Below, one piece after another: positions 8,388 to 32,759 of a stretch of 32,759 bases of DNA (positions within the stretch are counted from its first letter, which is position 1; each line of letters begins with the position of its first letter). A model generated the notes under the pieces. The model saw only the letters and a list, made by a program, of their open reading frames with translations. It did not search any database and was not told the DNA's origin. The stretch spans positions 128,001-160,759 of the forward strand of contig CAZCTC010000010.1 of assembly GCA_964501335.1 (NCBI GenBank), in the 5' to 3' direction. Source of the stretch: an uncultured Anaerolineales bacterium (lineage in GTDB: Bacteria; Chloroflexota; Anaerolineae; B4-G1; SLSP01). The position numbers were made by a program, and so were the translations under genes.

Positions 8388-8502
8388 CTGGAAGGGCGGA
8401 AGATTGGAGGATTGGAAGAATGGAAGTACAACGTGATTTTCGCCGGCCTTCTGAGGCCGGCGAAAATCAAATAAAAAGATTTCTTCTCGGGAGGATAAAG
8501 TC
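8388..8502 (+). repeat. Intergenic repeat copy made of five 8-bp periodic GGAAG/GGAGG units (8388-8427), then the hairpin GATTTTCGCCGGCC-TTCTGA-GGCCGGCGAAAATC (8435-8468), then the A-rich box aaataaaaagatttcttctcggg
   Basis: The loop TTCTGA and the right flank (aaa-A-rich-tttcttctc-gg) match the other hairpin copies. Periodicity read directly. Confidence 0.6.
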
Positions 8503-8985
8503 ATGAGAAGATCATGGTGGCTTGTGTTGGGTGGCGTGGTGGTTTTGTTGGGGTATGCCGCAGTGCTGTCGGGGACAACGATTTTTCCGATGATGCAGGA
8601 AGATCTCACCACTCCACGTGTCTATGCCTATCGGGACTGGCAGAGCCAGGGGATTCTGTTGCAGAAAGGCGATTGGGTGCAGGTGCGGGCTCAGGGGCGC
8701 TGGCTCTATACCCCGAAGGAGTATAACGGGCCGGAAGGCCATCGGCGTTATCTGGCTCCGGATTTCTATCCGCTGCCGGGGGTGGCGGGAGGAGCGTTGA
8801 TCGGGCGGATCGGGGAAGAGGGAACACCCTTTTATGTGGGGCGGTATGTCAATTTCCGGGTCGATCAAGAGGGCATGTTCTATTTGCGGATCGATGACGA
8901 TATTTTGAGCGATAACGACGGCTATGTGACGGTGGTGGTGACCGTCACGCCGGCGGAAGAAACAACGAAAGGAGAAGATCAATGA
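8503..8985 (+). CDS. Hypothetical small secreted protein (signal peptide; possibly beta-sandwich or lectin-like)
   Basis: 160 aa. SD gggaggat. N-terminal hydrophobic segment WWLVLGGVVVLLGYAAV. No recognisable catalytic motif. Confidence 0.5.
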   Translation: MRRSWWLVLGGVVVLLGYAAVLSGTTIFPMMQEDLTTPRVYAYRDWQSQGILLQKGDWVQVRAQGRWLYTPKEYNGPEGHRRYLAPDFYPLPGVAGGALIGRIGEEGTPFYVGRYVNFRVDQEGMFYLRIDDDILSDNDGYVTVVVTVTPAEETTKGEDQ

Positions 8986-9557
8986 AAGCTTTCCAGGAAT
9001 TTGGGCTGCAATGGATTCGGGCGATGACCTATCCATTGGTTCTGGGGGGGCTTTTTATGGGGTGGTACATGGGGTATTACTGGATGTTGTTTGTGACGGA
9101 AGGTCTGGGGGTGCCCTGGGATACGTCGGTTGTGCTGCCTCCGGTGGGATACTGGCAGCGTACTTTGAATGATTTCTTTTCGGCCGGTGTGGGAGCCTAT
9201 CTGCCGGCTGTGATTTTCCTGGCCGTGAATATCTTTCTCTTTGTCCGTGCCGTGATCCATACGAAGAATTTGCGAATGTCGGCGCTTGTTTTTGGGGTGG
9301 TCAATTTGATCGCGGTCGTTGTCTGGGTGGTAATTGCGAGCCCGATCCGAGATTCTATGGTGATTCCTGCCCATCTTACGGTGGATGATTGGGCTTACTG
9401 GGGGGATTTTAGAAGGGAGTGGCCGTTGCTGGGGCTCACTTTTGGGATTTTGGTGAGTCTTTTTTCCTTTTTGGTTTATTGGGGCCGGCGTCAGGGTGGA
9501 GGTGGCGGTTCGGTTGTCGGCATTCCTCATACGTCGCAGCCCGTTCTTTACTCATAA
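8982..9557 (+). CDS. Hypothetical integral membrane protein (4-5 TM)
   Basis: 191 aa. Start ATGA overlaps the upstream stop (translational coupling). SD aaaggagaag. Several hydrophobic helices. Gly-rich C-terminus. Confidence 0.55.
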   Translation: MKAFQEFGLQWIRAMTYPLVLGGLFMGWYMGYYWMLFVTEGLGVPWDTSVVLPPVGYWQRTLNDFFSAGVGAYLPAVIFLAVNIFLFVRAVIHTKNLRMSALVFGVVNLIAVVVWVVIASPIRDSMVIPAHLTVDDWAYWGDFRREWPLLGLTFGILVSLFSFLVYWGRRQGGGGGSVVGIPHTSQPVLYS

Positions 9558-9624
9558 AGACGGAGGGATTTTCCGATTGGTGGTGGATCTTTTCCGTGAC
9601 AGAAGCTCATGCAGGGCGCTGCCC

Positions 9625-9838
9625 CCATATCAGGCAACTTAAGGCGATTCATCAGTAGATCCCAGCTTTGGGACATCCCGCAAAGAGTATTTTCCCTGTA
9701 AGGTGCGACGCGCGGGAGGGGGGAGAGAGTTTTTTTATTCATTTTTTCGCGCGCCGTCTGCGGCGCGCGAAAAAATGGGCTTTCTTTCCCTTTTTCCGGG
9801 CGATTGCTGTTGCAAATGGTTTAAGTTGCCTGATATGG
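9625..9838 (-). repeat. Minus-oriented copy of the hairpin repeat (hairpin CATTTTTTCGCGCGCC-GTCTGC-GGCGCGCGAAAAAATG at 9739-9776; CGCGTCG and TTTGCGGGAtG boxes) bounded by 18-bp perfect terminal inverted repeats ccatatcaggcaacttaa (9625-9642) and ttaagttgcctgatatgg (9821-9838). MITE-like.
   Basis: The inverted repeats are an exact reverse complement. The internal boxes align with copy 9938-10196 when reverse-complemented. Confidence 0.65.
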
Positions 9839-9937
9839 CGCTGTCCCCTGTTTTGTTGTTAAGCAGCGACGCGATTCGATAGGAAGCGTTGCATGGGATC
9901 GCTGCGAGCGATGCGGGAGGGAGAGGGGGGAAGCGTA

Positions 9938-10196
9938 TGTCGCCAGGGCGGCTCTGGAAAAGCCTATGTTTTTGCGCGCATTCTGATGCGCGCAAAAACA
10001 TAAACAAAAAAATTCTCTCTCCCGGTCCAGCGCGTCGTATCTGGCCGGGAAAAGATCATTTGCGGGACGCTAAAAGAGATTTCACCACAGAGGCGCAGAG
10101 AGCACGGAGAAGAAGAGAGGAGATTTTTCTTTAAATTCTTCTCTGTGTTTCCGTGGTGAGTCTTTTCTGGGCCTATTTTCAGGACAGAAGGCCATG
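9938..10196 (+). repeat. Full-length copy B of the composite intergenic repeat. Order: left box tgtcgccagggcggctctggaaaagcc; hairpin TATGTTTTTGCGCGCA-TTCTGA-TGCGCGCAAAAACATA (9965-10002); A-rich tract; tccagcgcgtcgtat; second small hairpin cccggtccag...ctggccggg; catttgcgggacgc; gagatttcacc module; ctttaaattcttctctgtg; ggtgagtctt; ctattttcaggacagaaggccATG.
   Basis: Every module recurs in the other copies (3665-3800, 4924-5182, 8388-8502, 9625-9838, 26341-26813, 29515-29645, 31025-31125, 32500-32759). Confidence 0.75.
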
Positions 10197-10325
10197 CAGT
10201 GGCGGCACCCCGAAAAAAGGTGAAATACCCCGAGGTTTTTTTGCATCCTCTGGATTTGGATTATACTTAAGCTGTTTCCTCTCTGATTGATGTTCCATAT
10301 TTCATTTTGCCTAAGGAGATGCAGG

Positions 10326-12236
10326 ATGGCTCGTCATTTCAAGATTGAATCGCTGCTTTCTGCCCGGCTTTTTCTGAGTCCTCAACTGGTTGATAATCGG
10401 ATTTATTTTATGAGTAACCTTTCGGGCCGTATCGGCCTTTATGCAATGGACAAAGGGGGGAGTGTGCCGGAACCTTTGTTACCTCTGGATATTGCCTTGC
10501 AAAACCCCGTTTTAGTCCATGAAAGCGATTTTTTCTTCGTTTTTCCTAAGCTTGGGAAGATCATGGTGATGATCGATAAGGACGGCGATGAGAATTATCA
10601 GCCCTGTTGGATTCCGCTGTTGGGTGGGATTCCGGAGCCGGTGTTTGGAGACCGGTTTGTCGGTCAACAGGTTTTTGTGACGGAGGCAGATCTCGAGCAT
10701 AATCGCGTTATGTTGCTGGTGGACCATCGGACCGCGCCCATTTATGAGAGTTTTGTGGCCGATCTGGAAAAAGGGACATTGGTCAGTTTGGGGGCCAGCC
10801 CGTACGGCAATGCCTGCCTTGCCGCCGACAAGGATTACCGGCAGTTTATCCTGGCGGACGGTTATATGGGGGGAGATAATGTCCTTTATTATCGCGGGGT
10901 GGAAGATACGGAGCGCCGGTTGATTTACGGTATGCCGTTGGAGGAACGCTCTGCGGGCGTTGAGGTGGTCCGTACTGCTTTTAAAGCCGGGCATCTGCTC
11001 GAGGATGGCAGCGGCGTTTTGGTGATTACCAGCCGGTTCGACGATCAACTCAGCCTGGGATATCTACCCATGGATCGGACCCAGACGGTAGAGCCGGTGA
11101 AAGTGATGGGAACGGTCCATCGCGGCAGCGGCGAGATGGATAACCTGATCTATCTGGAGGGGCTGCGCTATCTGGTGATTTTCAATATCGACGGTTGTTC
11201 TTACGCCTACGAAGGGGCTTTTGATCCAGCCGCGCTTGTTTTCCATGTGGATCGGGTCATTTGCGGGGTGGGCGAATTGCACGACGGCGTTTTGCAACAT
11301 GTGAGCTATGAGAAGGCCAGCGGCGCTTATGCGCTGGCTTTCTGTTCGGCTACGATGCCGGTGCAGCTCTATATTTTGGAGCGGGATGGGACGCTGGCGG
11401 TCCAGACGCGTGAGCGGATGGTGGGAATTCCGATGGATTTGCTGGCGCCCGGCGAGGATGCTTCGTTTATCAGCCACGATGGGCTGCGGATTTCGGCTCG
11501 ACTCTATCTGCCGGCACCGATTTTGGGCTTTGAGGGGCGGCGGCCGGTGGTCTTTTACGTTCATGGAGGGCCGCAGGGGCAGGAGCGCCCGGATTCCACC
11601 TGGTTCTCGATGCCGTTGATTCAGTTCCTGACGCTGCGGGGTTTTGCCGTTTTTGTGCCCAATGTCCGCGGTAGCTCCGGGTATGGGCTGAATTATATGC
11701 GGCAGGTGGATCGCGATTGGGGGGGGAAAGATCGGTTGGACCATGTGGCGGCCTGGCATCACTTGCATGAGGATCCCCGGCTGGATCTGGAGCGGGCGGC
11801 GATTGTGGGCCGATCTTACGGCGGCTATATGACGTTGACCCAGGTCGGGCGACATCCGGAATTGTGGAAAGCCGGTTGTGATATGTTTGGGCCTTATAAT
11901 CTGGCGACCTTTATCGAAAGGTTGCCGGAAACCTGGAAGACGCATTTCTATCTTACGGTAGGAAACCCGGAGACCGAGGCGGCGGAGCTGGAGAAGCGTT
12001 CTCCGAGCAGCTATCTGGATCAACTGGCCTGTCCGTTGCTGGTGATTCAGGGAGCGAACGATCCGCGGGTGCGCCTGGCCGAGTCTGAGGATCTGGTCAA
12101 GCGGTTGCAGGCTCAGGGCAAGCAGGTGGAGCTGCTGATTTTTGAGAATGAGGGCCACGATGTGATCAAGTTTGAAAACAAAGTGCGCTGTTATAACGCC
12201 ATTGTCGATTTCTTCGCCCGGATTTTGCAACCTTAG
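10326..12236 (+). CDS. S9 family serine peptidase (prolyl oligopeptidase, dipeptidyl aminopeptidase or acylaminoacyl-peptidase-like): N-terminal beta-propeller plus C-terminal alpha/beta hydrolase
   Basis: Strong SD aaggag 10313-10318 before ATG 10326 (the ORF track's upstream TTG at 10287 lacks an SD). Nucleophile motif VGRSYGGYM. HGGP motif FYVHGGPQG. Catalytic Asp in GANDPRV and His in EGHD. Confidence 0.9.
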   Translation: MARHFKIESLLSARLFLSPQLVDNRIYFMSNLSGRIGLYAMDKGGSVPEPLLPLDIALQNPVLVHESDFFFVFPKLGKIMVMIDKDGDENYQPCWIPLLGGIPEPVFGDRFVGQQVFVTEADLEHNRVMLLVDHRTAPIYESFVADLEKGTLVSLGASPYGNACLAADKDYRQFILADGYMGGDNVLYYRGVEDTERRLIYGMPLEERSAGVEVVRTAFKAGHLLEDGSGVLVITSRFDDQLSLGYLPMDRTQTVEPVKVMGTVHRGSGEMDNLIYLEGLRYLVIFNIDGCSYAYEGAFDPAALVFHVDRVICGVGELHDGVLQHVSYEKASGAYALAFCSATMPVQLYILERDGTLAVQTRERMVGIPMDLLAPGEDASFISHDGLRISARLYLPAPILGFEGRRPVVFYVHGGPQGQERPDSTWFSMPLIQFLTLRGFAVFVPNVRGSSGYGLNYMRQVDRDWGGKDRLDHVAAWHHLHEDPRLDLERAAIVGRSYGGYMTLTQVGRHPELWKAGCDMFGPYNLATFIERLPETWKTHFYLTVGNPETEAAELEKRSPSSYLDQLACPLLVIQGANDPRVRLAESEDLVKRLQAQGKQVELLIFENEGHDVIKFENKVRCYNAIVDFFARILQP

Positions 12237-13596: not shown

Positions 13597-15063
13597 ATGC
13601 AGCGCGGTGGTTTGTTTCTGGATTTACGGCGCAATTTACTTTATCTGTGCCTGGTAGGAATCGATTCCGCCTGGTTTGCTCTGCTGCTGCCTTTGTTGGG
13701 GGTGCAGTCGACCTTATCCTGGTCGCCGTTGATCTTGTGGGGTATGTTGGCGGTGGGGATGTGCGGCTGTCTGGTGGTGCTGGAGCTTTTCAATCGGATC
13801 GGTTTGGGGAGGCCCTGGTATCCGCTGGCCGTGGCGGCTCTGGTCCTCTTGACGATTGTGGGGCTGATGCGGGTGGTGATTTACAACGGCTGGCCCTTTT
13901 GGAGTTGGGGCTGGGGGGAGCAGATCCTGCTCAGCTTTTTGCTGTTTGAAACCTGGCCGCGGCCGGAGCTGGCGCTGGCTGCGACCGGCTTTTTTGTCTG
14001 GCAGCGGGCTACCTGGGCGACGCGTCGATCGCTGGATTGGCGTGATGTCAGCAGCAATTTCTGGTTGGGCCTCTTCTTTTTGGGCTGCGGCGGGCTCTTT
14101 TGGGAGTTGTGGTTGAAGCAGCCGGCGCCGTTGGCGTTTGTCTGGGGCTATTTTGGATTGGGGATGGTGGCGTTGGCGTTGACGCGGGCCCATACGGCGC
14201 CGTTGCTGGTGCGGAGCATGGGGGCAGAGCTTTCGCCGGTGCGGCTGGCTCAACTGGGGATGACGGTGGGCCTGACCTTGCTGATCGGCGGGTTGAGCTG
14301 GTGGGGGCTTTCACAGCCTTTAATAGGGTTTGTGGCCTGGCTGGGGCCGTTGTGGAACTTTCTCTTTGTGTTGGTGGAAGTGTTGGTGGTATTGTTGATT
14401 TTTGTCGGCTGGCGGTTCTGGCAGTTTATTTCGGAGCTGTTGAAGGGGGAGCTGCTGCCGGCCTTGCAAAATCTGGAGGATATCTCTCGCTCGATTCAGC
14501 AGCTGGGAGAACAATTGGCCCAGCAGGCCGGATTGAATTTTGTCTGGCCTCCCTGGCTCGGGCTGGTTTTGCGTATTGGTGTGGCATTGTTGATTTTGTT
14601 GCCGGGTTTGTGGCTGGTGCTGGTCTATTTGGGGATCATTCAGCCGCCGCGGCGCCGGGAGGACGACGAGTATGCGAATCGATTGTCGGCGGAGCGGTTG
14701 TTGTGGGATGGATTGGATTCGCTGCGCGATCTGGGCCGGTTGATGCGCCGGTATGGGTTCAGCCGGCAGATGCTGGCGGCGATTTCGGTGCAGAATCTCT
14801 ATGCCAATGTGTGTCGTTTGGGGCGGCGGCAGGGGCGGCCGCGGCGGCCGTCGCAGCCCCCGGATGCTTATTTGCCGCAGCTGGTGGCGGCTTTTGAGGG
14901 GCTGGATAGTCAGTTGTCCCGGATCACGGAGGCCTATATGCAGGTGCATTACGGGGATCGGTCGGTTACGAATGAGGAACTGGCCCGGCTGCGGAAGGAT
15001 TATGCGGAGGTGCGGGCGCAGGCGGGGCGGAAGCGGCGCCTGGACGTGAAACGTAAAACGTAA
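13597..15063 (+). CDS. Polytopic membrane protein with a C-terminal DUF4129-like domain (the third usual member of MoxR/DUF58 operons)
   Basis: About 10 hydrophobic helices. C-terminal region GRRQGRPRRPSQPPDAYLPQLVAAFEGLDSQLSRITEAYMQVHYGDRSVTNEELARLRKDY matches the DUF4129 pattern (R..G.P...S.TP.EY......L.......Y...RYG). Confidence 0.7.
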   Translation: MQRGGLFLDLRRNLLYLCLVGIDSAWFALLLPLLGVQSTLSWSPLILWGMLAVGMCGCLVVLELFNRIGLGRPWYPLAVAALVLLTIVGLMRVVIYNGWPFWSWGWGEQILLSFLLFETWPRPELALAATGFFVWQRATWATRRSLDWRDVSSNFWLGLFFLGCGGLFWELWLKQPAPLAFVWGYFGLGMVALALTRAHTAPLLVRSMGAELSPVRLAQLGMTVGLTLLIGGLSWWGLSQPLIGFVAWLGPLWNFLFVLVEVLVVLLIFVGWRFWQFISELLKGELLPALQNLEDISRSIQQLGEQLAQQAGLNFVWPPWLGLVLRIGVALLILLPGLWLVLVYLGIIQPPRRREDDEYANRLSAERLLWDGLDSLRDLGRLMRRYGFSRQMLAAISVQNLYANVCRLGRRQGRPRRPSQPPDAYLPQLVAAFEGLDSQLSRITEAYMQVHYGDRSVTNEELARLRKDYAEVRAQAGRKRRLDVKRKT

Positions 15064-15250
15064 AACGTATTTCCTGTCCTGCGCGGCGTTACAAGGCCGG
15101 GGGGCGGTACTTCAAAGGATGAAAATGGTTTGTCGGGTGCAGTTTCCTGGGGTCTGCGAATCCCAGGCTACCCTAAGGTCGCCCCTTTGGGGCTGAGAAG
15201 GCTCGACAAAAAGGTGCCTGCTAATTTAGCGAAGGCAAAAAAGGGGAAGG

Positions 15251-15288
15251 GGGGAATTTGCACGCCTTCTGAGGCGTGCAAATTCCCC
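15251..15288 (+). repeat. Perfect 16-bp hairpin GGGGAATTTGCACGCC-TTCTGA-GGCGTGCAAATTCCCC, a member of the TTCTGA-loop hairpin family, in the gap between the DUF4129 gene and moxR
   Basis: Exact inverted repeat with the family loop TTCTGA. Preceded by an A/G-rich tract (aaaaaaggggaagggg). No 3' T-tract. Confidence 0.7.
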
Positions 15289-15369: not shown

Positions 15370-16308
15370 ATGGAGTTCTCAGAGCTGGCGAAAGCGATTA
15401 AACAGAATGTCGGCCGGGTGATCATCGGCAAGGCGGATGTGGTTGAGATGTTGTTGATTGCCCTGTTGACTGAGGGACATGTGCTGTTGGAGGATGTTCC
15501 AGGGATCGGCAAAACGACGCTGGCCAAGGCTTTGGCACGGAGTCTGGATGCTTCTTTTGCGCGCATCCAGTTCACGCCGGATCTGCTGCCGGGCGATGTC
15601 ACAGGGTTGAGCATTTACAATCAGAAAGAGCGGGAGTTTGAGTTTCACGCCGGGCCGGTTTTCCGTCAACTGCTGTTGGCCGATGAAATCAACCGGGCGA
15701 CGCCGCGGACCCAATCCAGCCTGCTGGAGGCCATGCAGGAGCAGCAGGTGACGGTGGACGGCAAGACCTATGCGTTGCCGCGGCCCTTTCTGGTCATTGC
15801 GACGCAGAATCCGATTGAGCTGGAGGGGACCTTTCCCTTGCCGGAGGCGCAGCTGGACCGCTTTTTGATGCAGGTGCGGTTGGGGTATCCCAGCGAAGCT
15901 GAGGAAGAGGAAATTCTCTTGCAATACGAGCGTCAGGATCCGCTGGTGGAGCTGCGGCCGGTGGTAACGATGGCCGAGATTCAGGAATTGCAGCGAAAAG
16001 TGCGGGAGATCCATGTCAATGGGGATGTGCGGCGGTATATCGTGCAGGTGGTGCGGACGACGCGGGAACATGAGGCGGTGGCGCTGGGCGGTTCGCCGCG
16101 GGGGACGCTGGCGCTCTATCGGTCAAGCCAGGCGCTGGCGGCGTTGCGGGGACGGGATTATGTCACGCCGGGCGATGTGCAGCAGCTCTGTCCGGCGATT
16201 TTAACGCATCGCGTGCATATTCGGCCGCAGGTGCGGTTACGAGGGCGTACGCCGGCGCAAGTAGTGGCGGAAATCATTGAAGCGGTGCCGGTACCGGTAG
16301 TTGAATAA
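15370..16308 (+). CDS. MoxR-family AAA+ ATPase
   Basis: SD aaggagg 15357-15363. Walker A GHVLLEDVPGIGKTTLAKALA. Walker B LLADEINRA. Characteristic MoxR length (312 aa) and C-terminal region (YVTPGDVQQL). Confidence 0.95.
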   Translation: MEFSELAKAIKQNVGRVIIGKADVVEMLLIALLTEGHVLLEDVPGIGKTTLAKALARSLDASFARIQFTPDLLPGDVTGLSIYNQKEREFEFHAGPVFRQLLLADEINRATPRTQSSLLEAMQEQQVTVDGKTYALPRPFLVIATQNPIELEGTFPLPEAQLDRFLMQVRLGYPSEAEEEEILLQYERQDPLVELRPVVTMAEIQELQRKVREIHVNGDVRRYIVQVVRTTREHEAVALGGSPRGTLALYRSSQALAALRGRDYVTPGDVQQLCPAILTHRVHIRPQVRLRGRTPAQVVAEIIEAVPVPVVE

Positions 16309-16312
16309 GGCT

Positions 16313-18343
16313 ATGATGGAGATTTCGGGTTATAAAATTCGCGTGAAAATAGCGCGGCTGGCCTTAAGCGGGCAATTTATCTGCCTTACTGGAATCCTGG
16401 TCATTTATTTTGGGCTGGCGTTGGGCTATAGAATTGCGGGGCCTTTTAATCGCCCTGTATGGATGAATTTGTATTTATTGCTGGCGCTGGATATCTGTTC
16501 TTTTATTTCCGTTTTCTGGTTGAGAAGATCGTTGACTCAGGCGGTGTGGGGGTATGCCTGGAGCAATCTCATTTATGTGGTTTTGATGCTGGGCTATCGG
16601 CTGCTCGATTTCAACTCTCCGAAAATCGATCCTCCTTATATTATCTTTTTATTGCATTTGAATATCTTTTCGTTGGGGATTATATTTGGTTTTCGTCCGG
16701 CGTTTAAATATGCCCTGGCGACCGTCGTCGTATTTTTAGTGGTGGGAATTTTCTATACCGAACGGCTGTCGATTGTGGTGGGAATTTTGTTTGCTTTGCT
16801 TATGACCTTTCCTCCTTTGGGGATCGATAAGTTAATGGCGGAGTTGCGGCAAAGCCAGGAAAAATTAAGTATCATTTTTCGAGAATCTCCGGATGTGATT
16901 TTAGTGTTGGATCCGGCGACAGGGAGAATTTGGGAGGGGAATGCCGCTGTCAAATGGGTGTTAGGTTACGTGGAAGAAGAGCTGCGTGGGGAACCTTTCA
17001 GTAAATTGTATGAATCGGATTCGCCGTTGGGAAAGGAGAAACTCTGGTATGTGGAGGCTCAGCGGCGGGATACCCACGGTTCCCAGTTCTTTTTGAAAGC
17101 CGATGGAACGCGCTGTCCGATGGATTGGACGGCGGCGCGCATTCCCTGGGATGAGGATTCGGCGATCCTGATTACGTTACGGGATGTGACGGAACGTTAT
17201 CAGGCGGAGGTGGAGCGAGCTCGTTTTACGGCCCAGTTGGGGGCCGCGGCCGAACTGGCGGCCCGGATCAATGCTTATCTGGATGCCGATCAGTTGTTGC
17301 CGATGGTGGTGGCTCAGGTGCAATCCCGCCTGGATGTGGCCCGGGCGGCGATCTATTTGTTGAATGAGGATTTGCAGGCGGCGCTTTCTCCTGCTGTTAA
17401 AGAGAGTGTGAGCCTGGGGGCATTGATGGCCTCGTCCAGCGTTATTGCCCGGGTGGTTCAGAACCGGGAGATGGTCAGGATTGACGATCTTCAGGAGTTG
17501 TCGTCAGAAGATCTTCCGTTTTTGCAGGCGGGGATGCAGACTCAACTGGTCGTTCCTTTGATTGTGCAGGATTGTCTGTTGGGCGTGATGGATCTTCAGG
17601 ATCTGCGGCCGGGGCGTTTTCATACCATCGATCTGGATGTCTTTTTCACGCTGGGGGTTCAGATCGCGACATCGCTTGAGAATGCGCGGCTCTTTGGGGA
17701 ATTGCAGAAGACGGCCCGTAATTTGCAGGGCCTTTCGCATCGTCTGGTGGCGGTGCAGGAGCAGGAGCGGCGGAACATTGCCTGTGAACTGCACGATGAG
17801 ATCGGGCAGATGTTGACGGCATTGAAGTTAATGCTGGATATGAGCAGCGGCGCCGGGGATTCGCAACAGGAGGCGCGGGATATGGTGCGCGATCTGTTGG
17901 AGCGGGTGCGCAACCTTTCGTTGGAGTTGCGGCCGCCGATGCTGGACGATTTAGGGATTTTGCCGGCGCTGGTCTGGCTTTTCAACCGTTATACCACGCA
18001 GACCCATATCAAAGTGAGTTTTCGCCATTCCGGGTTGGAGCGGCGTTTTACCCCGCAGATTGAGACGGCGGCCTATCGAGTGATCCAGGAATCGTTGACC
18101 AATGTCGCCCGCCATGCTCGTGTGCAAGAGGTCGAGGTGCGGTTGTGGGCGGATGAGGCGCAATTGCAGGTGCAGGTGGAAGATAACGGTCAGGGATTTG
18201 ATCTGGACGAAGTGCTGAGCCAGGCGGGTTCCAATGGATTATCGGGGATGCGGGAACGGGTTATGTTGTTGGGCGGAGAACTGACGATCGATTCCCGGCC
18301 GGGGGCGGGGACTTCGCTGGTGGCGGAGTTGCCCTTGCAATGA
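16313..18343 (+). CDS. Sensor histidine kinase, NarL-partner type (polytopic membrane domain - PAS - GAF - HisKA_3 - HATPase_c). A TTG at 16301 overlapping the moxR stop is an alternative start.
   Basis: HisKA_3 H-box CELHDEIGQMLTALK. HATPase N/G boxes (LTNVARHA, DNGQGFD, GLSGMRERVMLLGG). GAF block before LENARLFGELQ. AT-richer N-terminal membrane domain with a PVWMNLYLL motif. Confidence 0.9.
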   Translation: MMEISGYKIRVKIARLALSGQFICLTGILVIYFGLALGYRIAGPFNRPVWMNLYLLLALDICSFISVFWLRRSLTQAVWGYAWSNLIYVVLMLGYRLLDFNSPKIDPPYIIFLLHLNIFSLGIIFGFRPAFKYALATVVVFLVVGIFYTERLSIVVGILFALLMTFPPLGIDKLMAELRQSQEKLSIIFRESPDVILVLDPATGRIWEGNAAVKWVLGYVEEELRGEPFSKLYESDSPLGKEKLWYVEAQRRDTHGSQFFLKADGTRCPMDWTAARIPWDEDSAILITLRDVTERYQAEVERARFTAQLGAAAELAARINAYLDADQLLPMVVAQVQSRLDVARAAIYLLNEDLQAALSPAVKESVSLGALMASSSVIARVVQNREMVRIDDLQELSSEDLPFLQAGMQTQLVVPLIVQDCLLGVMDLQDLRPGRFHTIDLDVFFTLGVQIATSLENARLFGELQKTARNLQGLSHRLVAVQEQERRNIACELHDEIGQMLTALKLMLDMSSGAGDSQQEARDMVRDLLERVRNLSLELRPPMLDDLGILPALVWLFNRYTTQTHIKVSFRHSGLERRFTPQIETAAYRVIQESLTNVARHARVQEVEVRLWADEAQLQVQVEDNGQGFDLDEVLSQAGSNGLSGMRERVMLLGGELTIDSRPGAGTSLVAELPLQ

Positions 18344-20942: not shown

Positions 20943-20987
20943 TTGGTAGGGGGAATGGTTAGCATGTTCAAACATTTATGAGCTTGT

Positions 20988-21016: not shown

Positions 21017-21103
21017 GGTATTGGTATGCCCTGGCATATTTCATTTTGCTTGGCCAACTTCCAGGGAAGGGGCGAAGCTGTTGTTAAAGTAAGGAGAAGT
21101 GTC

Positions 21104-21661: not shown

Positions 21662-21754
21662 ACCTGAATAGTTTTGGCTAATGCTTAGCAATGATCGAAG
21701 CCAGGTGATGTTGGCTGTTTTGATTGATCGAGATTCAATTTCGAACTTCGAGAG

Positions 21755-21797
21755 TGTTCCGGGATTTTGAGCCCGGAACATTCTTATTTTTGTTTTT
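21755..21797 (+). terminator. Rho-independent terminator: stem TGTTCCGGG-attttgag-CCCGGAACA followed by TTCTTATTTTTGTTTTTG
   Basis: 9-bp GC stem plus a long T-rich tail, about 95 bp downstream of the 21661 stop. Confidence 0.65.
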
Positions 21798-21853
21798 GAT
21801 TTTAATGGGTCAGGTATAATTAGGAGAAAAATGGGCCCTGGAAGATTTCGCAT

Positions 21854-26295: not shown

Positions 26296-26340
26296 AAATG
26301 CAGCGGAAGTAGACAGCATCAAGTAGACAGTAGACAGCCT

Positions 26341-26813
26341 GTGTCGCCGGGGCAGCTCTGGAAAGGGCTATGTTTTCGTGCTTAGCCCTCACCCCAACCC
26401 CTCCCCATGCAGTAGTACCGGTGTAGCGCGCTTTCGGGTGATTCCTGGTGAAGATGCGCGGCCGGCATGGAGGTGAGGGGCTTAAGATGACGTCGCCGGG
26501 GCGGCTCTGGAAAGGGCTATGTTTTCGTGCTTAGCCCTCACCCCAACCCCTCCCCATGCAGTAGTACCGGTGTAGCGCGCTTTCGGGTGATTCCTGGTGA
26601 AGATGCGCGGCCGGCATGGAGGTGAGGGGCTTAAGATGACGTCGCCGGGGCGGCTCTGGAAAGGGCTATGTTTTCGTGCGCATCAGAATGCGCACGAAAA
26701 CATCAACAAAAAACTCTCTCCCGATCCTGCGCGGCGTAGCTTAGGGGGAAAGTATCATTTGCGGGACGCCACAGGGTTGACCTGTTTTCAGGACCGTCGT
26801 GAGGTGATTTATG
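26341..26813 (+). repeat. Copy D of the composite repeat. It contains a 148-bp unit tandemly duplicated 2.3 times (26345-26640). Each complete unit splits the family hairpin with a 111-bp insert bounded by imperfect inverted repeats (ttagccctcacc ... ggtgaggggcttaa). The intact hairpin TATGTTTTCGTGCGCA-TCAGAA-TGCGCACGAAAACAT lies at 26667-26703, followed by the cctgcgcggcgta and catttgcgggacgc boxes and ttttcaggac...ATG.
   Basis: Units 26345-26492 and 26493-26640 are identical except for one base (gcagctctgg vs gcggctctgg). The third unit continues into the intact hairpin. All boxes match the other copies. Confidence 0.7.
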
Positions 26814-27474: not shown

Positions 27475-28452
27475 ATGATCCGTTCGGTTTATCATCCCAA
27501 AGCTGGGCCGGTGGAGTTCAATATAGATTTCAATCGGCTGAAGGTCGCCGTTGAGGATCGTGAAGGTATGGTGTGGGTCAGTCTGGAGCATGCCTCAACG
27601 GATGAGGTCTATGCGGTACTGCGCGATATCTTTCATTTTCACCCGCTGGCGATTGAAGATTGTCTGAGTGAGGAGTATCAGCCTCCCAAGGTAGACGATT
27701 TTGACGATTATATTTTTGTGATCATGCATGCTCTCCGGCCGGAATTTCCTCTTGATCAGCTCGATACGAGGGAGTTGAATTGTTTCCTGGGGTGTAATTA
27801 TGTGGTTACCTCGACGGTTGCGGAGGTTATGCCGCCGGTACAGGATGTCTGGGACCGAATCAAGCGGGATGAGCGGTTGTTGCATCGCGGCGCTGATTTC
27901 CTTTGCCATGCCCTGTTGGATGCACTGGTCGATAATTACATGCCGATCCTGGACATTATGGATGAACAGCTGGATCGGTTGGAGGCCGAGGTGTTGGATC
28001 GGCCCCGCGCCGATACCTTGCAGCAGATTTTAGGACTCAAACACAGTGTATTGGTATTGCGGCGGGTGGTTTCACCTCAACGCGAGGTGATGAACCGGCT
28101 CAGCCGTGACGAATTTGCTCAGATCACCGAGGATCGGCGCATCTATTTCCGGGATATTTACGACCATCTGGTGCGGGTCAATGATCTGAGCGAGTCGGTG
28201 CGGGATGTCATCAGCGGGACGCTCGATACCTATCTTTCGGTGACATCCAATCGGCTCAATGAAGTGATGAAGGCTCTGACCGTGGTTTCGACGATTTTTC
28301 TGCCGCTTTCTTTTATTGCCGGGGTTTATGGGATGAACTTCGAGTTTATGCCGGAATTGCACTGGCGGTACGGCTATCTTTTTGTCTGGGCTGTTTTCAT
28401 TGGGGTGGCCTGGTTTATGGTGCGGATTTTCAGGAGGCAGGGGTGGTGGTGA
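27475..28452 (+). CDS. corA: Magnesium/cobalt transporter CorA
   Basis: SD gaaggag. Cytoplasmic domain then two C-terminal TM helices with the signature GMNFEFMPEL (GMN motif). Confidence 0.9.
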   Translation: MIRSVYHPKAGPVEFNIDFNRLKVAVEDREGMVWVSLEHASTDEVYAVLRDIFHFHPLAIEDCLSEEYQPPKVDDFDDYIFVIMHALRPEFPLDQLDTRELNCFLGCNYVVTSTVAEVMPPVQDVWDRIKRDERLLHRGADFLCHALLDALVDNYMPILDIMDEQLDRLEAEVLDRPRADTLQQILGLKHSVLVLRRVVSPQREVMNRLSRDEFAQITEDRRIYFRDIYDHLVRVNDLSESVRDVISGTLDTYLSVTSNRLNEVMKALTVVSTIFLPLSFIAGVYGMNFEFMPELHWRYGYLFVWAVFIGVAWFMVRIFRRQGWW

Positions 28453-28453
28453 A

Positions 28454-29449
28454 ATGGAACTGGATTGGTTTGAGGTAAATCGTGCGGCTGTTCAGCAGCG
28501 GGTCGCCTGGCTGAAAACTGAAATGGACGGGGTGGTATATGTGGGTTCTTCAGCTTTACACGATCTGGTGGTGACGAAGTCGGGATCGTGGCTGGAGCTG
28601 GGTTTTGTCGATCCTACGTCTGATGAAGTCATGTCCCGGCTCGATCTCGACGATCCTTTGAATTTACTTTCTCCTTATATGCAGTCGATGATGCTGGGAC
28701 TTCTCTGGCGTCCTGAGCCGCAGCAAGCCTATCTGATCGGGTTTGGCGGCGGCAATATCCCCCTGGTTTTACATCATTACTATCCCGAATTGACGATTGA
28801 GAGTGCGGAGATCGATCCTGAGGTTGTGCGGCTGGCCTGCGCTTATTTTGGGGTGGTTCCGGATGACCGGTTGCGAGTTGCGGTGGAAGATGGACGTGCC
28901 GGGCTGGAGCGAGGAATGCCGGGACAGTATGATATGGTCTTTGTCGATGCCTTTCGCGGGACGGGCTATGGGCCATATCATTTGGGGACCCTGGAATTTT
29001 TCCAGCTTTGTAAGGAACGATTGGTCGACGGGGGCGTGTTGGCGATCAATCTCTATCGGGGCGATTTTCTCTGTTGGGAGAAGATGAAGACCCTGATGAC
29101 GGTCTTCCCGGAAGTGCTCTGTGTGCCTTTGCACAATGCCGCCGTCCTTTTTGCTTCCAATGCGCGGCCGGGTGATATTGAAGCCCGTCTGGCCGGGTTA
29201 CAGGAACGGCATCATTTTACTTTTCCTTTTGTAACACAGGGGCGAAAGTTGATGCCGCTCTTAGAACTGGCGGCGATGAATGGGGCTGATTGGCACGCGG
29301 CGCCGATTTTGCGGGATGGGGAGCTGCCGCCGGGGTATTGCGAGCAGATTTCGGGACGCAGTACGATTTTCAGGAAGGCTTTGCCGGAGGATCTCTGTCC
29401 CTGCGGTTCAGGGAAGCTGCTCAAAGTGTGTCATGGTCGGGATCAATAA
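28454..29449 (+). CDS. Spermidine/spermine-synthase-like class I SAM-dependent methyltransferase-fold protein with a C-terminal SEC-C metal-binding motif
   Basis: ATG 1 nt after the corA stop. YLIGFGGGNIPLVLHHY (Gly-rich SAM/dcSAM loop). ESAEIDPEVV. YDMVFVDAF. C-terminal CPCGSGKLLKVCHG, which is the SEC-C motif as at the SecA C-terminus. Confidence 0.75.
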   Translation: MELDWFEVNRAAVQQRVAWLKTEMDGVVYVGSSALHDLVVTKSGSWLELGFVDPTSDEVMSRLDLDDPLNLLSPYMQSMMLGLLWRPEPQQAYLIGFGGGNIPLVLHHYYPELTIESAEIDPEVVRLACAYFGVVPDDRLRVAVEDGRAGLERGMPGQYDMVFVDAFRGTGYGPYHLGTLEFFQLCKERLVDGGVLAINLYRGDFLCWEKMKTLMTVFPEVLCVPLHNAAVLFASNARPGDIEARLAGLQERHHFTFPFVTQGRKLMPLLELAAMNGADWHAAPILRDGELPPGYCEQISGRSTIFRKALPEDLCPCGSGKLLKVCHGRDQ

Positions 29450-29463
29450 ATCAATTTTTCGTG

Positions 29464-29501
29464 GCCGCCTTCTAAGGCGACCACGAAAAATCAAAAAAGT
29501 T
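29464..29501 (+). repeat. Hairpin family member ATTTTTCGTGGCCGCC-TTCTAA-GGCGACCACGAAAAAT (one C.A mismatch; loop variant TTCTAA) directly after the methyltransferase stop
   Basis: Inverted repeat read from the sequence with the same T5-stem-loop-stem-A5 layout as the other copies. It sits 35 bp upstream of the next hairpin. Confidence 0.6.
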
Positions 29502-29514
29502 ATCCATCTATGCA

Positions 29515-29645
29515 GTTGGTTGGGAGAAAAATCTATTTTTTCGCGCGCCGTCTGCGGCGCGCGAAAAAATAAACAAAAAAATTTCCCCCATCCAGCGTGT
29601 CGTTTCGAGCCGAACAAAAGCCTTTTGCGGGACGCTAAAATGCTA
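29515..29645 (+). repeat. Repeat copy with hairpin TATTTTTTCGCGCGCC-GTCTGC-GGCGCGCGAAAAAATA (29534-29571), then aaacaaaaaaatttccccc, tccagcgtgtcgt and ttttgcgggacgctaaaa boxes, in the convergent gap between the methyltransferase gene and obg
   Basis: The hairpin core is identical to the one at 9741-9774. Flank boxes match copy B. Confidence 0.7.
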
Positions 29646-29662
29646 ACCGCACAAGTTGAAAA

Positions 29663-30931
29663 TTATTCTTCTTCGCGCCACTCCAATTCGTAATCCCCAA
29701 TGCGTACCAGATCGCCCTCCTGGACTCCGGCTTTGCGCAGCGCAGAGAGCACTCCCTGGTGTTCCAGATAGCGGTGTAACCGCATCAACGCATCATCCAT
29801 ATTCAACGGTGTCCGGCGAACGGCCCGTTCGATCTTGCCGTTGGTGACCCGCCAGATGCCGTCGTAATCGCGTTCTACTACGACCGGTTCCTCGGGTTCG
29901 GGCCGGAAGACCGGCGTCTGAATTTCTTCCGCGGGCGGCGGTGGGGTTTCCTGCAACAGCTGATAGGCCCGGCCCAACAGCGGGCGCAGGTTTTCCGTGG
30001 TGGCGCCGGAAATACCCCAGACTTCATAGCCCATCTTTTCCAGCGCTTCTTTGATGGTGGGGAAGGCTTCCCGGGCTTCGGGAATATCCAGTTTGTTTAC
30101 GGCCACGATTTGCGGCCGTTCGGCCAATCCATGGCCGAAGGCGGCCAGTTCCGCATTGATGGTGGTGAAATCCTCGATGGGATCTTCTGCCGAGCCGTCC
30201 AGCAGATGGAGCAGGATGCGGGTCCGCTCGATATGTTTCAGAAATTCCAATCCGAGCCCTTTGCCTTCGCTGGCGCCTTCGATCAGGCCTGGAAGGTCTG
30301 CCAGCACAAAGGTGTTATTGGTACTCAACGCGACGACGCCCAGGATGGGATGGAGGGTGGTGAAGGGGTAATCGGCGATGGCCGGTTTGGCGGCCGTCGT
30401 GGCGGCCAGCAGCGTGGATTTGCCGGCATTGGGCTTGCCGACCAGACCGACATCGGCCAGCAATTTCAACTCCAGATGAATCCAGCGATCTTCGCCGGGT
30501 TCCCCGTGTTCTGCGATGCGGGGGGCGCGATTGTTGGACGTCACGAAATGTTTATTGCCTCGTCCGCCCCGGCCGCCCCGGGCCACGACGTAACGGGTCC
30601 CTTTTTCGGTCAGATCGGCGAGCAGTTCCCCGGTTTCGGCATCGCGGACCATCGTGCCGGGGGGGACGAGAATGACCATGTCCTTGCCGGCGGCGCCATA
30701 TTGATCCTTGTTGCGGCCGTTCTCGCCGTTGTCGGCGAGAAACTGGGGGTGGTGGGCAAACATGTAGAGGGTGTTGAGATGGGTATCAACTTCCAGGACG
30801 ATGTCCCCGCCCTTGCCGCCGTCGCCGCCGGAGGGGCCGCCGAAGGGGACATACTTTTCACGCCGGAACATGGCGGCACCGTTGCCGCCGTCGCCGGCCT
30901 TAACGTAAATTTTCACTTCATCGTAAAACAT
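29663..30931 (-). CDS. obg: GTPase Obg/CgtA
   Basis: N-terminal Obg fold MFYDEVKIYVKAGDGGNGAAMFRREKYVPFGGPSGGDGGKGGDIVLEVD. G1 GKPNAGKST. G3 DLPG. G4 NKLD. C-terminal OCT-like domain. Confidence 0.95.
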   Translation of the reverse strand: MFYDEVKIYVKAGDGGNGAAMFRREKYVPFGGPSGGDGGKGGDIVLEVDTHLNTLYMFAHHPQFLADNGENGRNKDQYGAAGKDMVILVPPGTMVRDAETGELLADLTEKGTRYVVARGGRGGRGNKHFVTSNNRAPRIAEHGEPGEDRWIHLELKLLADVGLVGKPNAGKSTLLAATTAAKPAIADYPFTTLHPILGVVALSTNNTFVLADLPGLIEGASEGKGLGLEFLKHIERTRILLHLLDGSAEDPIEDFTTINAELAAFGHGLAERPQIVAVNKLDIPEAREAFPTIKEALEKMGYEVWGISGATTENLRPLLGRAYQLLQETPPPPAEEIQTPVFRPEPEEPVVVERDYDGIWRVTNGKIERAVRRTPLNMDDALMRLHRYLEHQGVLSALRKAGVQEGDLVRIGDYELEWREEE

Positions 30932-31024
30932 TCAGGTTCCTCGCTTTGGTTACACTGCGCCCTCTACGTATACTACATAGTTGCAGAAAAGTCAAAAAAG
31001 AAAGTAGACAGGAAGATTGCACGG

Positions 31025-31125
31025 GTTGGAAAAAAGTCCGTGTTTTTGCGCGCATTCTGATGCGCGCAAAAACACAAACAAAAACTCTCTCCGTTTATCC
31101 CGCGCGTCGTTTTTTACCAGGAAAG
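31025..31125 (+). repeat. Repeat copy with hairpin TGTTTTTGCGCGCA-TTCTGA-TGCGCGCAAAAACA (31041-31074), then aaacaaaaactctctcc and cccgcgcgtcgt boxes, between the obg start and the MFS gene end
   Basis: The hairpin core is identical to the one at 9965-10002. Flank boxes match. Confidence 0.7.
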
Positions 31126-31141
31126 CACCGGCTGTGGGGCG

Positions 31142-32416
31142 TTAATTTTTTCCCAATTTCACTTTTTTAAAGAACATAAAGGCCAGAGCATTGATCAGGA
31201 TGGCCGCGATGAAAAGTGCCGACATGCCGAAGAGATCGACCAGGCCGCCGCAGAGTCCGCTCAGGATCAGGGTGACCCCGAAAACGGTATTGGCAAAGCC
31301 TATCGCCAACGTTCGATCATCGGCGGGAATAATTTCCATCAGCAGCGTTTGGCCGGAGATGGCTTCCATGGGACTGAGCAGGCCTACCAGGGCAAAGATC
31401 GGATAGGCGGCCATGTAGGCGGGGAAGGGGAAGCCCGGCGCGAAAAGTCGACTGCTCAACAGGTCCAGGCCGAGCGCCAGTATGGCCAGCAATCCCCAGC
31501 CCAGAGCGGCCCCGCACAAAATCCAGCGGTGTCCCCGCCGATCTGCGATCCAGCCCCAGGGGTAGTTGGCGATCAATCTGAAAAAGGTCACGATGGTCAG
31601 ATAGTCGGTAGCGGCCTGGGCCGGGGCCTGGAGGGTGCGCTGGGCCTGGAGTGAATAGAAGGGGATTACGATCATGCCCAAAAAGAGAAAGCTGCGCCCC
31701 AACACCATATTTCGATAGGTGGCGTCATTTTTTAGATAATTCCAGCCGCGGCGCAGTTGATTACTGAGGGAGTTGACTGCGCGGGTGGGGCCCGGCGGTT
31801 CTTTGGTCAATGAGAAGATGACCAGAGCCAGGCCTCCTACGATGGCGGAGATGAAGATCAGGAGGGCGTAGTTGCGGGGGAAAGAGAGGCCGCCGCTGAG
31901 GATCGGGCCGATGATCTGGACGCCGGCGAGGGCCAGCAGGCCGGCGCTGAGCTGGCGTAAGGCGAACATTCGCCCGCGTTGATGGGGAGCGATGGTTTTG
32001 ACCGTCACTTCCAGGAAGGGGATGCCGGCCAGTCCGGAGGTAACCCGTCCGGCGAAGTAGATCAGGTAAAAGGCGACCAGCAACGCCGTCGGTTCGCGAA
32101 TCCACCAGAGGGCGGCGGCCAGGGAGAGCCAGGTTGCCACCCGGACGATGGTCAGCCAGCGGTAGATGATGATCTGGCGAGGGAATTTTTGCAGCCAGCC
32201 GGAGATGAAGATTTGGGGAAGATACCAGCCTCCGGTGTTGATGGGAGCGATGAGCCCTAACAGGATGTTGGATTGGGTGAGCTGGCTGGCGAACCAGAGG
32301 AGTACCAGATTGGCATCCATGAGGGCGTCGGAGAAAGTGGAGATTCCGCCGTTGGCGACATTGAGTGCAAAGGCTTCCCGGCTTTCGCGCGGAGTGAGTT
32401 GTTCTGTTTGGGCCAT
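31142..32416 (-). CDS. MFS (major facilitator superfamily) transporter, 12 TM predicted
   Basis: 424 aa, hydrophobic throughout. MFS motif-A-like GWIADRRGHRWIL and GRVTSGLAG segments. SD aggatgaa before the minus-strand ATG. Confidence 0.85.
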   Translation of the reverse strand: MAQTEQLTPRESREAFALNVANGGISTFSDALMDANLVLLWFASQLTQSNILLGLIAPINTGGWYLPQIFISGWLQKFPRQIIIYRWLTIVRVATWLSLAAALWWIREPTALLVAFYLIYFAGRVTSGLAGIPFLEVTVKTIAPHQRGRMFALRQLSAGLLALAGVQIIGPILSGGLSFPRNYALLIFISAIVGGLALVIFSLTKEPPGPTRAVNSLSNQLRRGWNYLKNDATYRNMVLGRSFLFLGMIVIPFYSLQAQRTLQAPAQAATDYLTIVTFFRLIANYPWGWIADRRGHRWILCGAALGWGLLAILALGLDLLSSRLFAPGFPFPAYMAAYPIFALVGLLSPMEAISGQTLLMEIIPADDRTLAIGFANTVFGVTLILSGLCGGLVDLFGMSALFIAAILINALAFMFFKKVKLGKN

Positions 32417-32499
32417 GATATAAGTTCATCCTGTTGATCTGAGCATAGATGGGGCCATTCTACCTCAGCATTCTTGTGGGACAAGAGCCCATCTTTTGG

Positions 32500-32759
32500 G
32501 GCCCCCGGCATGGCCGTCTGTCCTGAAAATAGCCCCGTCTAAGGTGCGACGCACTTTCTATCCCTGAAACCGACGATTCAAACGACTCAACGTGGGAACA
32601 AGTCGTCTGTCCTTGCAAGATCAGAGTGCGTTGCACCTCTTTGAGAAATCCTCCTCACCCGCACAAGGCCCCTCTCCCGTAAGCTACGCCGCGCAGGATA
32701 GGGGGAGAGTTTTTTTGTTTATGTTTTCGCGGGCTTCAGAAAGCCCGCGAAAACATAGG
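32500..32759 (-). repeat. Minus-oriented copy of the composite repeat (hairpin TATGTTTTCGCGGGCTT-TCAGAA-AGCCCGCGAAAACATA at 32720-32757; cctgcgcggcgtagctta and ctattttcaggacagacggccATG boxes) upstream of the MFS gene. Cut by the window end.
   Basis: The reverse complement aligns with copy D (26700-26800) and with the 3' module of copies A and B. Its ATG at 32509-32511 opens a frame that runs out of phase into the MFS start. Confidence 0.65.

Follow-up and report, generated by a model that had tools for sequence, protein, structure and literature searches.

What are the dozens of perfect hairpins that one bacterial lineage carries between its genes, and what keeps them perfect while their stems differ from copy to copy? 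The question is raised by a 32,759-nt stretch of contig CAZCTC010000010.1 (positions 128,001 to 160,759; the window in what follows) from an uncultured bacterium of the Anaerolineales. Its class, the Anaerolineae, is a poorly studied and mostly uncultured one within the Chloroflexota. An earlier note, made from the letters of the window, had described a dense family of intergenic hairpins there and likened it to repetitive extragenic palindromic (REP) sequences and bacterial interspersed mosaic elements (BIMEs). Repeats of this kind are known mainly from Proteobacteria. We lean, on balance, towards a different reading: the hairpins belong to lineage-specific, high-copy palindromic units within mosaic intergenic repeats, whose arms are homogenised, which are partly used as terminators, and which have spread with a strand polarity. 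The family is apparently undescribed; literature searches for comparable repeats in Chloroflexi or Anaerolineae found none.

A purpose-written scan of the window located eight perfect palindromes with arms of 15-17 bp and a 4-nt loop; perfect family hairpins span 36-38 bp. A mismatch-tolerant scan brought in one more member (29454-29491), whose arms differ by one C/A mismatch. Eleven hairpins of the window had 14-bp arms with no more than one mismatch, compared with none in each of 20 shuffles of the window, and a degenerate family pattern gave six matches where none was expected. Folded as single-stranded DNA (ssDNA), the hairpins have energies between -20.5 and -22.5 kcal/mol (z-scores between -6.5 and -11). 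Every family copy is intergenic. The earlier note was right that the family is real, but its count of at least 11 perfect hairpins breaks down into eight perfect ones, one with one mismatch, one loop-less palindrome and two truncated arms. The perfect copy that it placed at 29464-29501 is the mismatched hairpin, which lies 10 nt further left, and its split copies at about 26368 and 26516 are the first 13 nt of a left arm repeated within a 149-bp tandem duplication. What the note gave as a 6-nt loop, TTCTGA, is a 4-nt TCTG together with a closing pair that varies; six copies have TCTG on the + strand, one has TCTA, and two, 26668 and 32720, have CAGA. Conserved flank boxes do exist: a right box of about 65 nt, here called M2, is present in seven window copies.

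The family is dispersed and not a local duplication, as copies occur in contigs of two other metagenome-assembled genome (MAG) assemblies. Scanning species-representative genomes with the hairpin pattern revealed at least three true family loci: L003 and L006, from an Anaerolineaceae MAG (CAZHTS01), and L004, on a contig binned as Geobacter (CAZHVY01). A match in a Paracoccaceae genome (L005), with an 8-nt loop, looks like a chance match to the pattern. Since a protein of the L004 contig is also found in SRR6476076, the sample of the window itself, and since the named homologues of this protein come from Chloroflexota, Anaerolineales, Firmicutes and one Polyangiaceae but not from Geobacter, the contig most likely derives from the same organism as the window or from a sister organism. 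A 20.9-kb piece of it (L140) holds 13 readable family hairpins and one masked copy, and a sequence reaching past the right end of the window (L001) adds one hairpin just beyond that end. Together, the window, L001, L003, L006 and L140 contain 29 hairpins, of which 25 are perfect and four have exactly one mismatch, its position varying between them; none has two or more.

Extended to a whole genome, the density of one copy per 1.5-3.3 kb would give a copy number of about a thousand in order of magnitude. Family elements lie at or beside the ends of short-read contigs from this organism (JGI 3300022666, Logan SRR6476076), as a high-copy repeat is expected to break assembly. A covariance model built from 19 aligned copies detected no further decayed members in the family contigs and gave weak matches in more distant relatives. 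No match was obtained in viral contigs with the hairpin pattern or in plasmids by BLASTN with copy B (Table 1). A metagenome scan with an M2 pattern returned at least 120 loci, all of them false positives (none had the A-run/CTC context), and a protein search with an open reading frame (ORF) of L006 found nothing. One further locus, P0122, was set aside as belonging to an unrelated Gram-negative organism. The best named relatives of the window's Obg protein are from Anaerolineae MAGs, with at most 72% identity. Because relatives with 69-72% Obg identity (L007-L010, L133-L139) keep the order of the major facilitator superfamily (MFS) gene and obg without family elements at this locus, the copies at 29534 and 31040 are, judged by this comparison, lineage-specific gains.

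The stems provide the strongest evidence as to how the family is maintained. Of the 17 stem pairs in the 19 aligned copies, 15 vary in both partners; 66 of 323 stem cells are compensated, C-G/G-C swaps being among the changes, and not one is one-sided (G.U). Paired cells amount to 95.7%, compared with 72% after column shuffles and 31-55% with the partner column shifted along. Beside these hairpins, the M2 boxes show 64% identity per alignment column; the hairpin arms disagree at 4 of roughly 470 pairs. There are at least eight different stems, each perfect. As the stem types recur across MAGs, linked to particular left modules, the independent compensatory events must be fewer than the cell count. 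The earlier note's description of variable, fully compensated stems and a conserved loop thus stands, and some stem positions are conserved along with the loop; its statement that every copy is perfectly self-complementary holds for all but the four hairpins with one mismatch. The combination of uncompensated mismatches and a variable loop, which it had named as contrary evidence, was not seen in the 19-copy alignment.

Selection on an RNA fold would tolerate G.U pairs. Given changes on both sides at 15 of 17 pairs without any G.U, the alignment argues that the palindrome is maintained as DNA and not merely as an RNA fold. Several copies look as if caught in transition. The arms of L140_7113 are of two types, one GGCGGGCTT and the other GGCGCGCTT, which makes this copy an intermediate between two perfect stem types. 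Two adjacent tandem units on the L004 contig (1452/1282) have nearly identical M2 boxes and different tops, CGCACTG-A-CAGTGCG and CGCGGGCTT-TCTG-AAGCCCGCG, both perfect. Copy 4937 has lost its loop symmetrically, and the loop is flipped relative to the flanks in three of the 19 aligned copies (9740, 26668 and L004_2391). Two papers report that template switching homogenises the arms of inverted repeats and inverts their spacers, and propose that it keeps short inverted repeats perfect over evolutionary time (PMC8604942; PMC5941160). The arms of the present family are probably homogenised by template switching as well. Copying from arm to arm, through a replication template switch within the inverted repeat, would keep both arms identical: a new mutation would be erased or transferred to the other arm, and the loop would occasionally be inverted. 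Perfect stems without wobble pairs, and flipped loops, would be the result.

We oriented the copies by their flanks and refer to the A-rich sense as canonical. It reads ...GGGAGAAAAAAGCCC, then the hairpin, then AAACAAAAAAA-CTCTCCCC, then M2. The hairpin consensus is (Y)RTDTTTT-SGNNSGC-NN-TCTG-NN-GCSNNCS-AAAAHAY(R), with an A/T-rich foot and a G+C-rich, variable top in which G12, G16 and the loop are conserved. M2 (consensus ATCCnGCGCGTCGT-N-TTTTACnGGGAAAG-N6-TTGCGGGACGC-TAAAA) is 65 nt long, and the spacing between GCGCGTCG and TTGCGGG is fixed at 22 nt (GCGCGTCG-N22-TTGCGGGACGC-TAAAA). No conserved RNA fold was found for M2 (consensus energy -1.6 kcal/mol, four pairs, no covariation), and a permissive Rfam cmscan of the whole window gave nothing at the hairpins or at M2. 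Sigma-70, sigma-54 and extracytoplasmic function (ECF) sigma factor promoters were rejected for M2 by inspection, their spacings being unfit; a promoter scan placed probable gene promoters downstream of M2, at 10240-10267 and 32484-32457.

Many copies form a unit of about 185 bp, consisting of a 15-mer GACCTGTGCGGTTAG, a purine/A-run, the hairpin, AAACAAAAAAA-CTCTCCC, M2 and the inverted 15-mer. With up to three mismatches allowed, the 15-mer is found at left ends and, inverted, just past M2; more than 15 matches were seen where about two are expected by chance in 150 kb. A complete unit of 185 bp lies at L003 2091-2275, and further right ends with the 15-mer are at 29643-29657 of the window and at L001 107-121. 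The left side is modular, carrying M3 (GTCGCCGGGGCGGCTCTGG), M4, M5 or the flank with the end 15-mer, and M7 may lie upstream of M3. The hairpins 8434, 29454, L003_2050 and L140_4271 are solo, without modules; L140_4271 has the same stem as 9740, 29534 and L003_5891. Nearby copies are arranged head-to-tail, 79-260 bp apart, in eight pairs (29454/29534; L001 207/465; L003 2050/2208; L140 1026/1207, 6204/6374, 7113/7313 and 17365/17472; and 19571 with the masked upstream copy). The sole inverted pair is 9740/9965. The window copies are listed in Table 1.

Table 1. Family elements and related features in the window. Strand is that of the A-rich sense or of the feature as annotated.
Feature	Position	Strand	Composition	Context
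Loop-less family member	4894..4956	+	Left-end 15-mer GACCTGTGCCCTCAG at 4894-4908, then purine/A-run flank; 10+10 bp palindrome TGTTTGGGCG/CGCCCAAACA at 4937-4956	Weak covariance-model match (25.4 bits)
Orphan right box M2	5138..5203	+	No adjoining hairpin	Ends 8 nt before ATG at 5211
Solo hairpin	8434..8469	.	16-bp perfect stem, TCTG on +, no flank modules	Between co-oriented genes 7450-8385 and 8503-8985
Full element, A-rich sense on -	9656..9777	-	Hairpin 9740-9777, 17 bp, stem type B CGCGCGCCG; M2 9656-9739	Terminator-like T-rich sense on +, 183 nt past gene 8982-9557
Full element (copy B)	9938..10075	+	Left box GTCGCCAGGGCGGCTCTGGAAAAGCC 9938-9964; hairpin 9965-10002, stem type A GCGCGCAT; A-run and M2 10003-10075	
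Hairpin	15251..15288	+	17 bp, stem GCACGCCT, loop TCTG	M4 repeat 5', degenerate right box 3'
Full element with 149-bp tandem duplication	26343..26772	+	Duplication 26343-26679, 2.3 units, each with left box and first 13 nt of left arm; hairpin 26668-26703, loop CAGA on +; M2 26704-26772	
One-mismatch hairpin	29454..29491	+	Mismatch C29465/A29480 (G.T on - strand), loop TCTA	Begins 5 nt past stop codon of gene 28382-29449; head-to-tail with 29534 element
Full element	29534..29657	+	Hairpin 29534-29571, stem type B; M2 29572-29640; inverted end 15-mer CTAACCGCACAAGTT 29643-29657	T-rich sense on -, directly after obg (29663-30931, -)
Full element	31040..31142	+	Hairpin 31040-31075, stem type A; M2 31076-31142	T-rich sense on -, directly after MFS gene (31142-32416, -), 109 nt before obg start
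Full element, A-rich sense on -	32636..32757	-	Hairpin 32720-32757, stem type C CGCGGGCTT; M2 32636-32719	Upstream of MFS gene; left box and a further tandem element past window end (L001 1-464)

Could the hairpins terminate transcription? The earlier note had denied this for all copies because a T-run lies 5' and an A-run 3' on both strands. That is correct within the palindrome, but the flanks outside it are asymmetric and give a T-run, hairpin, GGGC and TTTTTT on one strand: the reverse of the canonical sense reads GAGAG-TTTTTTTGTT, hairpin, GGGC-TTTTTT-CTCCC. A consensus scan flagged four copies as resembling intrinsic terminators, at 9738-9779(+), 31079-31036(-), 29574-29531(-) and 29494-29451(-), with stems lengthened to 19-20 pairs via G.U pairs. 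Folded as RNA, the T-rich sense attains -37 to -43 kcal/mol, the stem extending into the flanks. In 18 of 22 copies the flanks pair with each other more strongly in the T-rich sense; mean energies are -18.5 kcal/mol (T-rich), -12.4 (A-rich) and -14.0 (shuffled flanks). The A-rich sense never shows the terminator layout of a stem with a directly adjoining U-run. Transcripts of the T-rich sense would be predicted to fold into a 17-20-bp hairpin followed by a U-run and to terminate there, the element acting as terminator of the gene that its T-rich sense follows; the opposite sense would give only a stable mRNA hairpin, possibly a 3' stabiliser.

The placement of the copies fits this use in part. 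The T-rich sense lies within 500 nt past the end of a co-oriented gene in 14 of about 25 copies (L140, 8/11; window, 4/10; L003, 2/3), for instance after gene 8982-9557, obg and the MFS gene. Several copies begin 5-12 nt past the stop codon, and the co-oriented copies in L140 are found at the borders of apparent operons. Of the others, some precede genes, some lie in divergent regions, and some are antisense between genes that are co-oriented. An alternative is to see the family as ordinary Rho-independent terminators, alike through duplication only, whose stems are kept because the RNA fold is selected. In its favour, the T-rich sense agrees with the terminator consensus, having a G+C-rich stem and T-run on one strand, and many copies sit just past stop codons. 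We nevertheless regard this explanation as unlikely. G.U cells are absent from the aligned stems, whereas two of the three conventional terminators in the window carry mismatches. About half of the copies face gene starts or lie antisense to the flanking genes. Most + strand genes of the window use other terminators (7315, 20905, 21750), the neighbouring family copies being oppositely directed, and in L140 the - strand genes with 3' ends at 6491 and 17554 run into the A-rich sense. The hairpin at 20905-20938 is an ordinary terminator unrelated to the family. Family members differ from intrinsic terminators in their 3-4-nt spacer, long A/U lower stem and shared flanks, and termination leaves the conserved loop, the 65-nt M2 and the inverted 15-mers at the ends without a role. 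Termination is thus a plausible use of many copies, but not the reason for the family.

The orientation of the copies is also not explained by the genes. Within a contig the copies are co-directed, and their direction follows the sign of the GC skew, not the gene strand. We used this sign as a proxy for the direction of replication; tandem copies are not independent observations. The C-rich strand carries the T-run in 24 of 27 copies, a count that includes the non-conforming L001_207 just past the window end. TCTG is on the G-rich strand in 22 of 26 copies, among them the solo or flank-poor 8434, 15251, 29454, L003_2050 and L140_4271. In the window, the + strand skew is very strong and uniform, at about +0.09 to +0.3, and is positive also under the three - strand genes; 22 of 25 genes are on the G-rich strand, and the T-rich sense is on the - strand in eight of ten copies. 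L140 has the opposite sign, its + strand skew being -0.05 to -0.13 throughout, under genes of both strands. Two thirds of its genes are on the + strand, and so is the T-rich sense in all 11 copies with flanks. The polarity agrees in four of four copies in L003 and in the single copy in L006. The G-rich strand is usually taken as the leading strand, which makes it the template for lagging-strand synthesis. If so, the A-rich sense with its TCTG loop would be exposed as ssDNA at the replication fork. Insertion sequences of the IS200/IS605 family excise from and insert into the lagging-strand template, which gives them such an orientation bias (PMC3333891; PMC6006769). The polarity of the present family suits a mechanism that, like HUH enzymes, works on a single DNA strand.

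Polarity of this kind could also mark a DNA-structural signal, namely cruciforms or single-stranded hairpins that are bound by a host protein and serve chromosome organisation or replication, comparable to gyrase and IHF at BIMEs or to KOPS. The strict Watson-Crick symmetry, the A-tract flanks, the conserved positions and loop, and the fixed spacing of an M2 that has no RNA fold would all suit such a role, as would a contig-wide polarity that is independent of gene strand. We judge it very unlikely, however, as the turnover of copies between relatives and the tandem duplications look selfish and not designed, and a protein that reads sequence would need no compensated stems unless the hairpin were extruded.

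The reading favoured by the earlier note was a classical REP/BIME system, in which the hairpins are mobilised by a single-copy REP-associated tyrosine transposase (RAYT, or TnpA-REP, an HUH enzyme of the Y1 type) encoded elsewhere in the genome. There are clear likenesses: short G+C-rich palindromes in high copy, confined to intergenic regions and set in mosaics with other motifs, sub-families with complementary differences, and proposed roles in termination and mRNA stabilisation. The mosaic flanks are as in BIMEs, and the strand polarity is compatible with an enzyme acting on ssDNA, as do the IS200/IS605 relatives of RAYT. The hallmarks of the system are missing, however. REP hairpins are defined by a tetranucleotide tag at one end (PMC3733652, PMC3333891), and GTAG/CGTC tags mark most known REP families (PMC3733652). 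In the 19 aligned copies and longer flanks we found no GTAG/CTAC or CGTC/GACG tag at the hairpin foot, which has CC/GCC before and AA after the stem. E. coli TnpA-REP requires a stem mismatch in addition to GTAG, and a REP made perfect is neither bound nor cleaved (PMC3333891), whereas the present stems are perfect over 15-17 bp and those of REPs in Enterobacteria and Pseudomonas are imperfect and 5-13 bp long. The latter occur predominantly as inverted pairs, and head-to-tail pairs are negligible among REPs (PMC3733652). The pair described in the earlier note as BIME-like (29464/29534) is really 29454/29534, a direct repeat, as are nearly all pairs of this family. A contig-wide polarity with GC skew also sets the family apart. 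The RAYT or other HUH gene that the earlier note suggested looking for was not found, as no Y1/HUH gene is present in about 85 kb examined (window, L003, L006, L132 and L140). We therefore consider a classical REP/RAYT system quite unlikely.

Other hairpin-based systems differ from the family too. IS200/IS605 elements and palindrome-associated transposable elements (PATEs) are likewise hairpin-based and strand-specific, with an orientation tied to the lagging-strand template, but they carry a pair of subterminal hairpins, unlike each other and imperfect, and insert beside a specific tetra- or pentanucleotide; our family has one central perfect hairpin and inverted 15-mer ends, and no TnpA was seen. 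Integron attC sites and HUH Rep origins share the principle of a kept structure with variable stem and constant loop or core, functional on one strand. Here, by contrast, the loop has 4 nt, R/L core boxes and extrahelical bases are lacking, neither an integrase nor a Rep gene is present, and the surrounding genes are of the housekeeping kind and not cassettes. Neither the attC boxes R''/R' (RYYYAAC / GTTRRRY) nor L were found in the 19-copy alignment, and no integrase is encoded nearby. The attC, CRISPR, retron and dimeric-operator readings were ruled out on anatomy.

The inverted 15-mers suggest a conventional MITE (miniature inverted-repeat transposable element), with a DDE transposase recognising 15-bp terminal inverted repeats, the hairpin as cargo, and an orientation bias due to selection against co-directional terminators. 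The non-coding unit of about 185 bp is bounded by GACCTGTGCGGTTAG ... CTAACCGCACAGGTC, the flanks are A-rich at both ends (GAAAAAAC / GAAAAWT), and relatives lack the elements at the same loci. In these respects the family resembles Correia/NEMIS, ERIC and RUP elements, which are non-coding, 100-200 bp long and intergenic, have inverted ends, can supply terminators and vary between relatives. Against this, few copies have both ends intact, the ends often being degenerate or replaced by other modules, and no clear or exact target-site duplication was seen at the unit ends. The inner palindrome is perfect and the orientation strongly biased, unlike in these MITE families. The solo hairpins, which have no ends, keep the loop polarity (8434, 29454, L003_2050, L140_4271). 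Moreover, the terminator sense in L140 runs with most genes, so that selection against co-directional terminators fails to explain the bias. A conventional MITE is, in our view, improbable.

We return to the reading set out at the beginning, of palindromic units with homogenised arms, partial use as terminators and strand-polar spread. On this reading, the family is a functional and structural analogue of REP/BIMEs or MITEs and does not consist of classical REPs. The units would have spread by copying or insertion in a manner that is strand-specific with respect to replication, the likeliest route being insertion into the lagging-strand template, where it is single-stranded, by way of recognition of the hairpin and TCTG loop. 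Several observations weigh against parts of this account. Conservation is seen in the loop, at G12/C31 and G16/C27 and in the T/A foot, next to pairs that vary; template switching alone would let the loop drift as fast as the stems, and this conservation implies an additional sequence-specific constraint. As to termination, only about half of the copies are placed to terminate a gene, the 3-4-nt spacer (GGGC) parts the perfect stem from the T-run and is bridged by G.U pairs only, and the copies with an M3 left box (9965 and 26668) have weak T-runs, with 3-4 T in 12 nt. The polarity comes from only four contigs of two or three MAGs. Finally, no transposase or HUH gene was seen in the sequences examined and no target-site duplication is evident, so mobility is deduced from distribution only.

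A more specific proposal, which we put forward tentatively and consider rather unlikely, is that the hairpins are the active sites of an undescribed ssDNA mobile system or a genome-polarity signal in Anaerolineae. An enzyme would recognise the perfect TCTG hairpin extruded on the lagging-strand template and would copy or insert it in a fixed orientation. If true, this would be a replication-polar class of repeats distinct from REP/RAYT and IS200/IS605, both of which require imperfect hairpins.

Whatever its mode of spread, the family provides an unusually clear example from nature of palindrome arms evolving in concert, over hundreds of base pairs without a wobble pair while the flanks have diverged by about one third, and it offers a way to measure template-switch correction in nature. 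The polarity, should it hold genome-wide, would provide a simple marker of replication direction for fragmented MAGs, and would point to a hairpin-recognising ssDNA enzyme with rules unlike those of RAYT and IS200/IS605. The elements probably supply many of the terminators of this lineage. They also break its short-read assemblies, and genome annotation should take them into account.

Several further repeats were noticed. Module M4 is an 80-nt repeat (window 15146-15225; L003 about 120-300, - strand) with two stem-loops, CCTGGG...CCCAGG and GCCCC-TTT-GGGGC. It is about 90% identical at non-orthologous sites in two MAGs, is always located 5' of a family hairpin, and has a weak Rfam match to the Acido-Lenti-1 small RNA (23.4 bits, gathering score 37). 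The M4-hairpin units at window 15251 and L003_78 were rejected as orthologues because their neighbouring ORFs are unrelated; they are paralogous repeat copies. M9 (TATTTTCAGGACAGA(A/C)GGCCATGC) lies between M2 and the predicted promoters of downstream genes, at 10170-10215 and 26775-26800 of the window and at 335-375 and 690-730 of L001. M6, a repeat family in its own right, is an imperfect long hairpin of about 95 nt at window 3668-3765, 4996-5070 and 10077-10165; it is built of CRCRGAGA-like octamers around TTTAAATTC, and its first copy directly follows the stop codon of a PD-(D/E)XK nuclease gene. Runs of the heptamers (G)TAGACA(G), three to four times, and ACGTAAA, three times, adjoin repeat modules at window 26305-26340 and 15048-15072 and at L001 404-432, with similar runs in L135 and L138.

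Tandem duplications with a junction within the left arm of a hairpin, after 13-15 nt, occur at window 26343-26679 and at L140 19630-19900; the position of the junctions suggests that replication stalls or slips at the hairpins. A flank copy without a hairpin, GGAAAAAAGC-TACCTT-AAACAAAAAAATTCTCTCC at about 235-290 of L003, is either an empty site or a hairpin deletion. Two of the more distant relatives carry hairpins of their own. After obg, L010 carries five units in tandem, each of about 130 bp (11300-11880; GTGATTTTGTCAGGCGGG-TCTTT-...), which are analogous to the family and distinct from it, three of the five being imperfect, and L008 has hairpins of the form T-run, hairpin, T-run at 990-1085. 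In the window itself, 16301-23659 holds three paralogous PAS/GAF histidine-kinase genes in a row, and the GC content is 0.43 at 18-22 kb and about 0.57 elsewhere.

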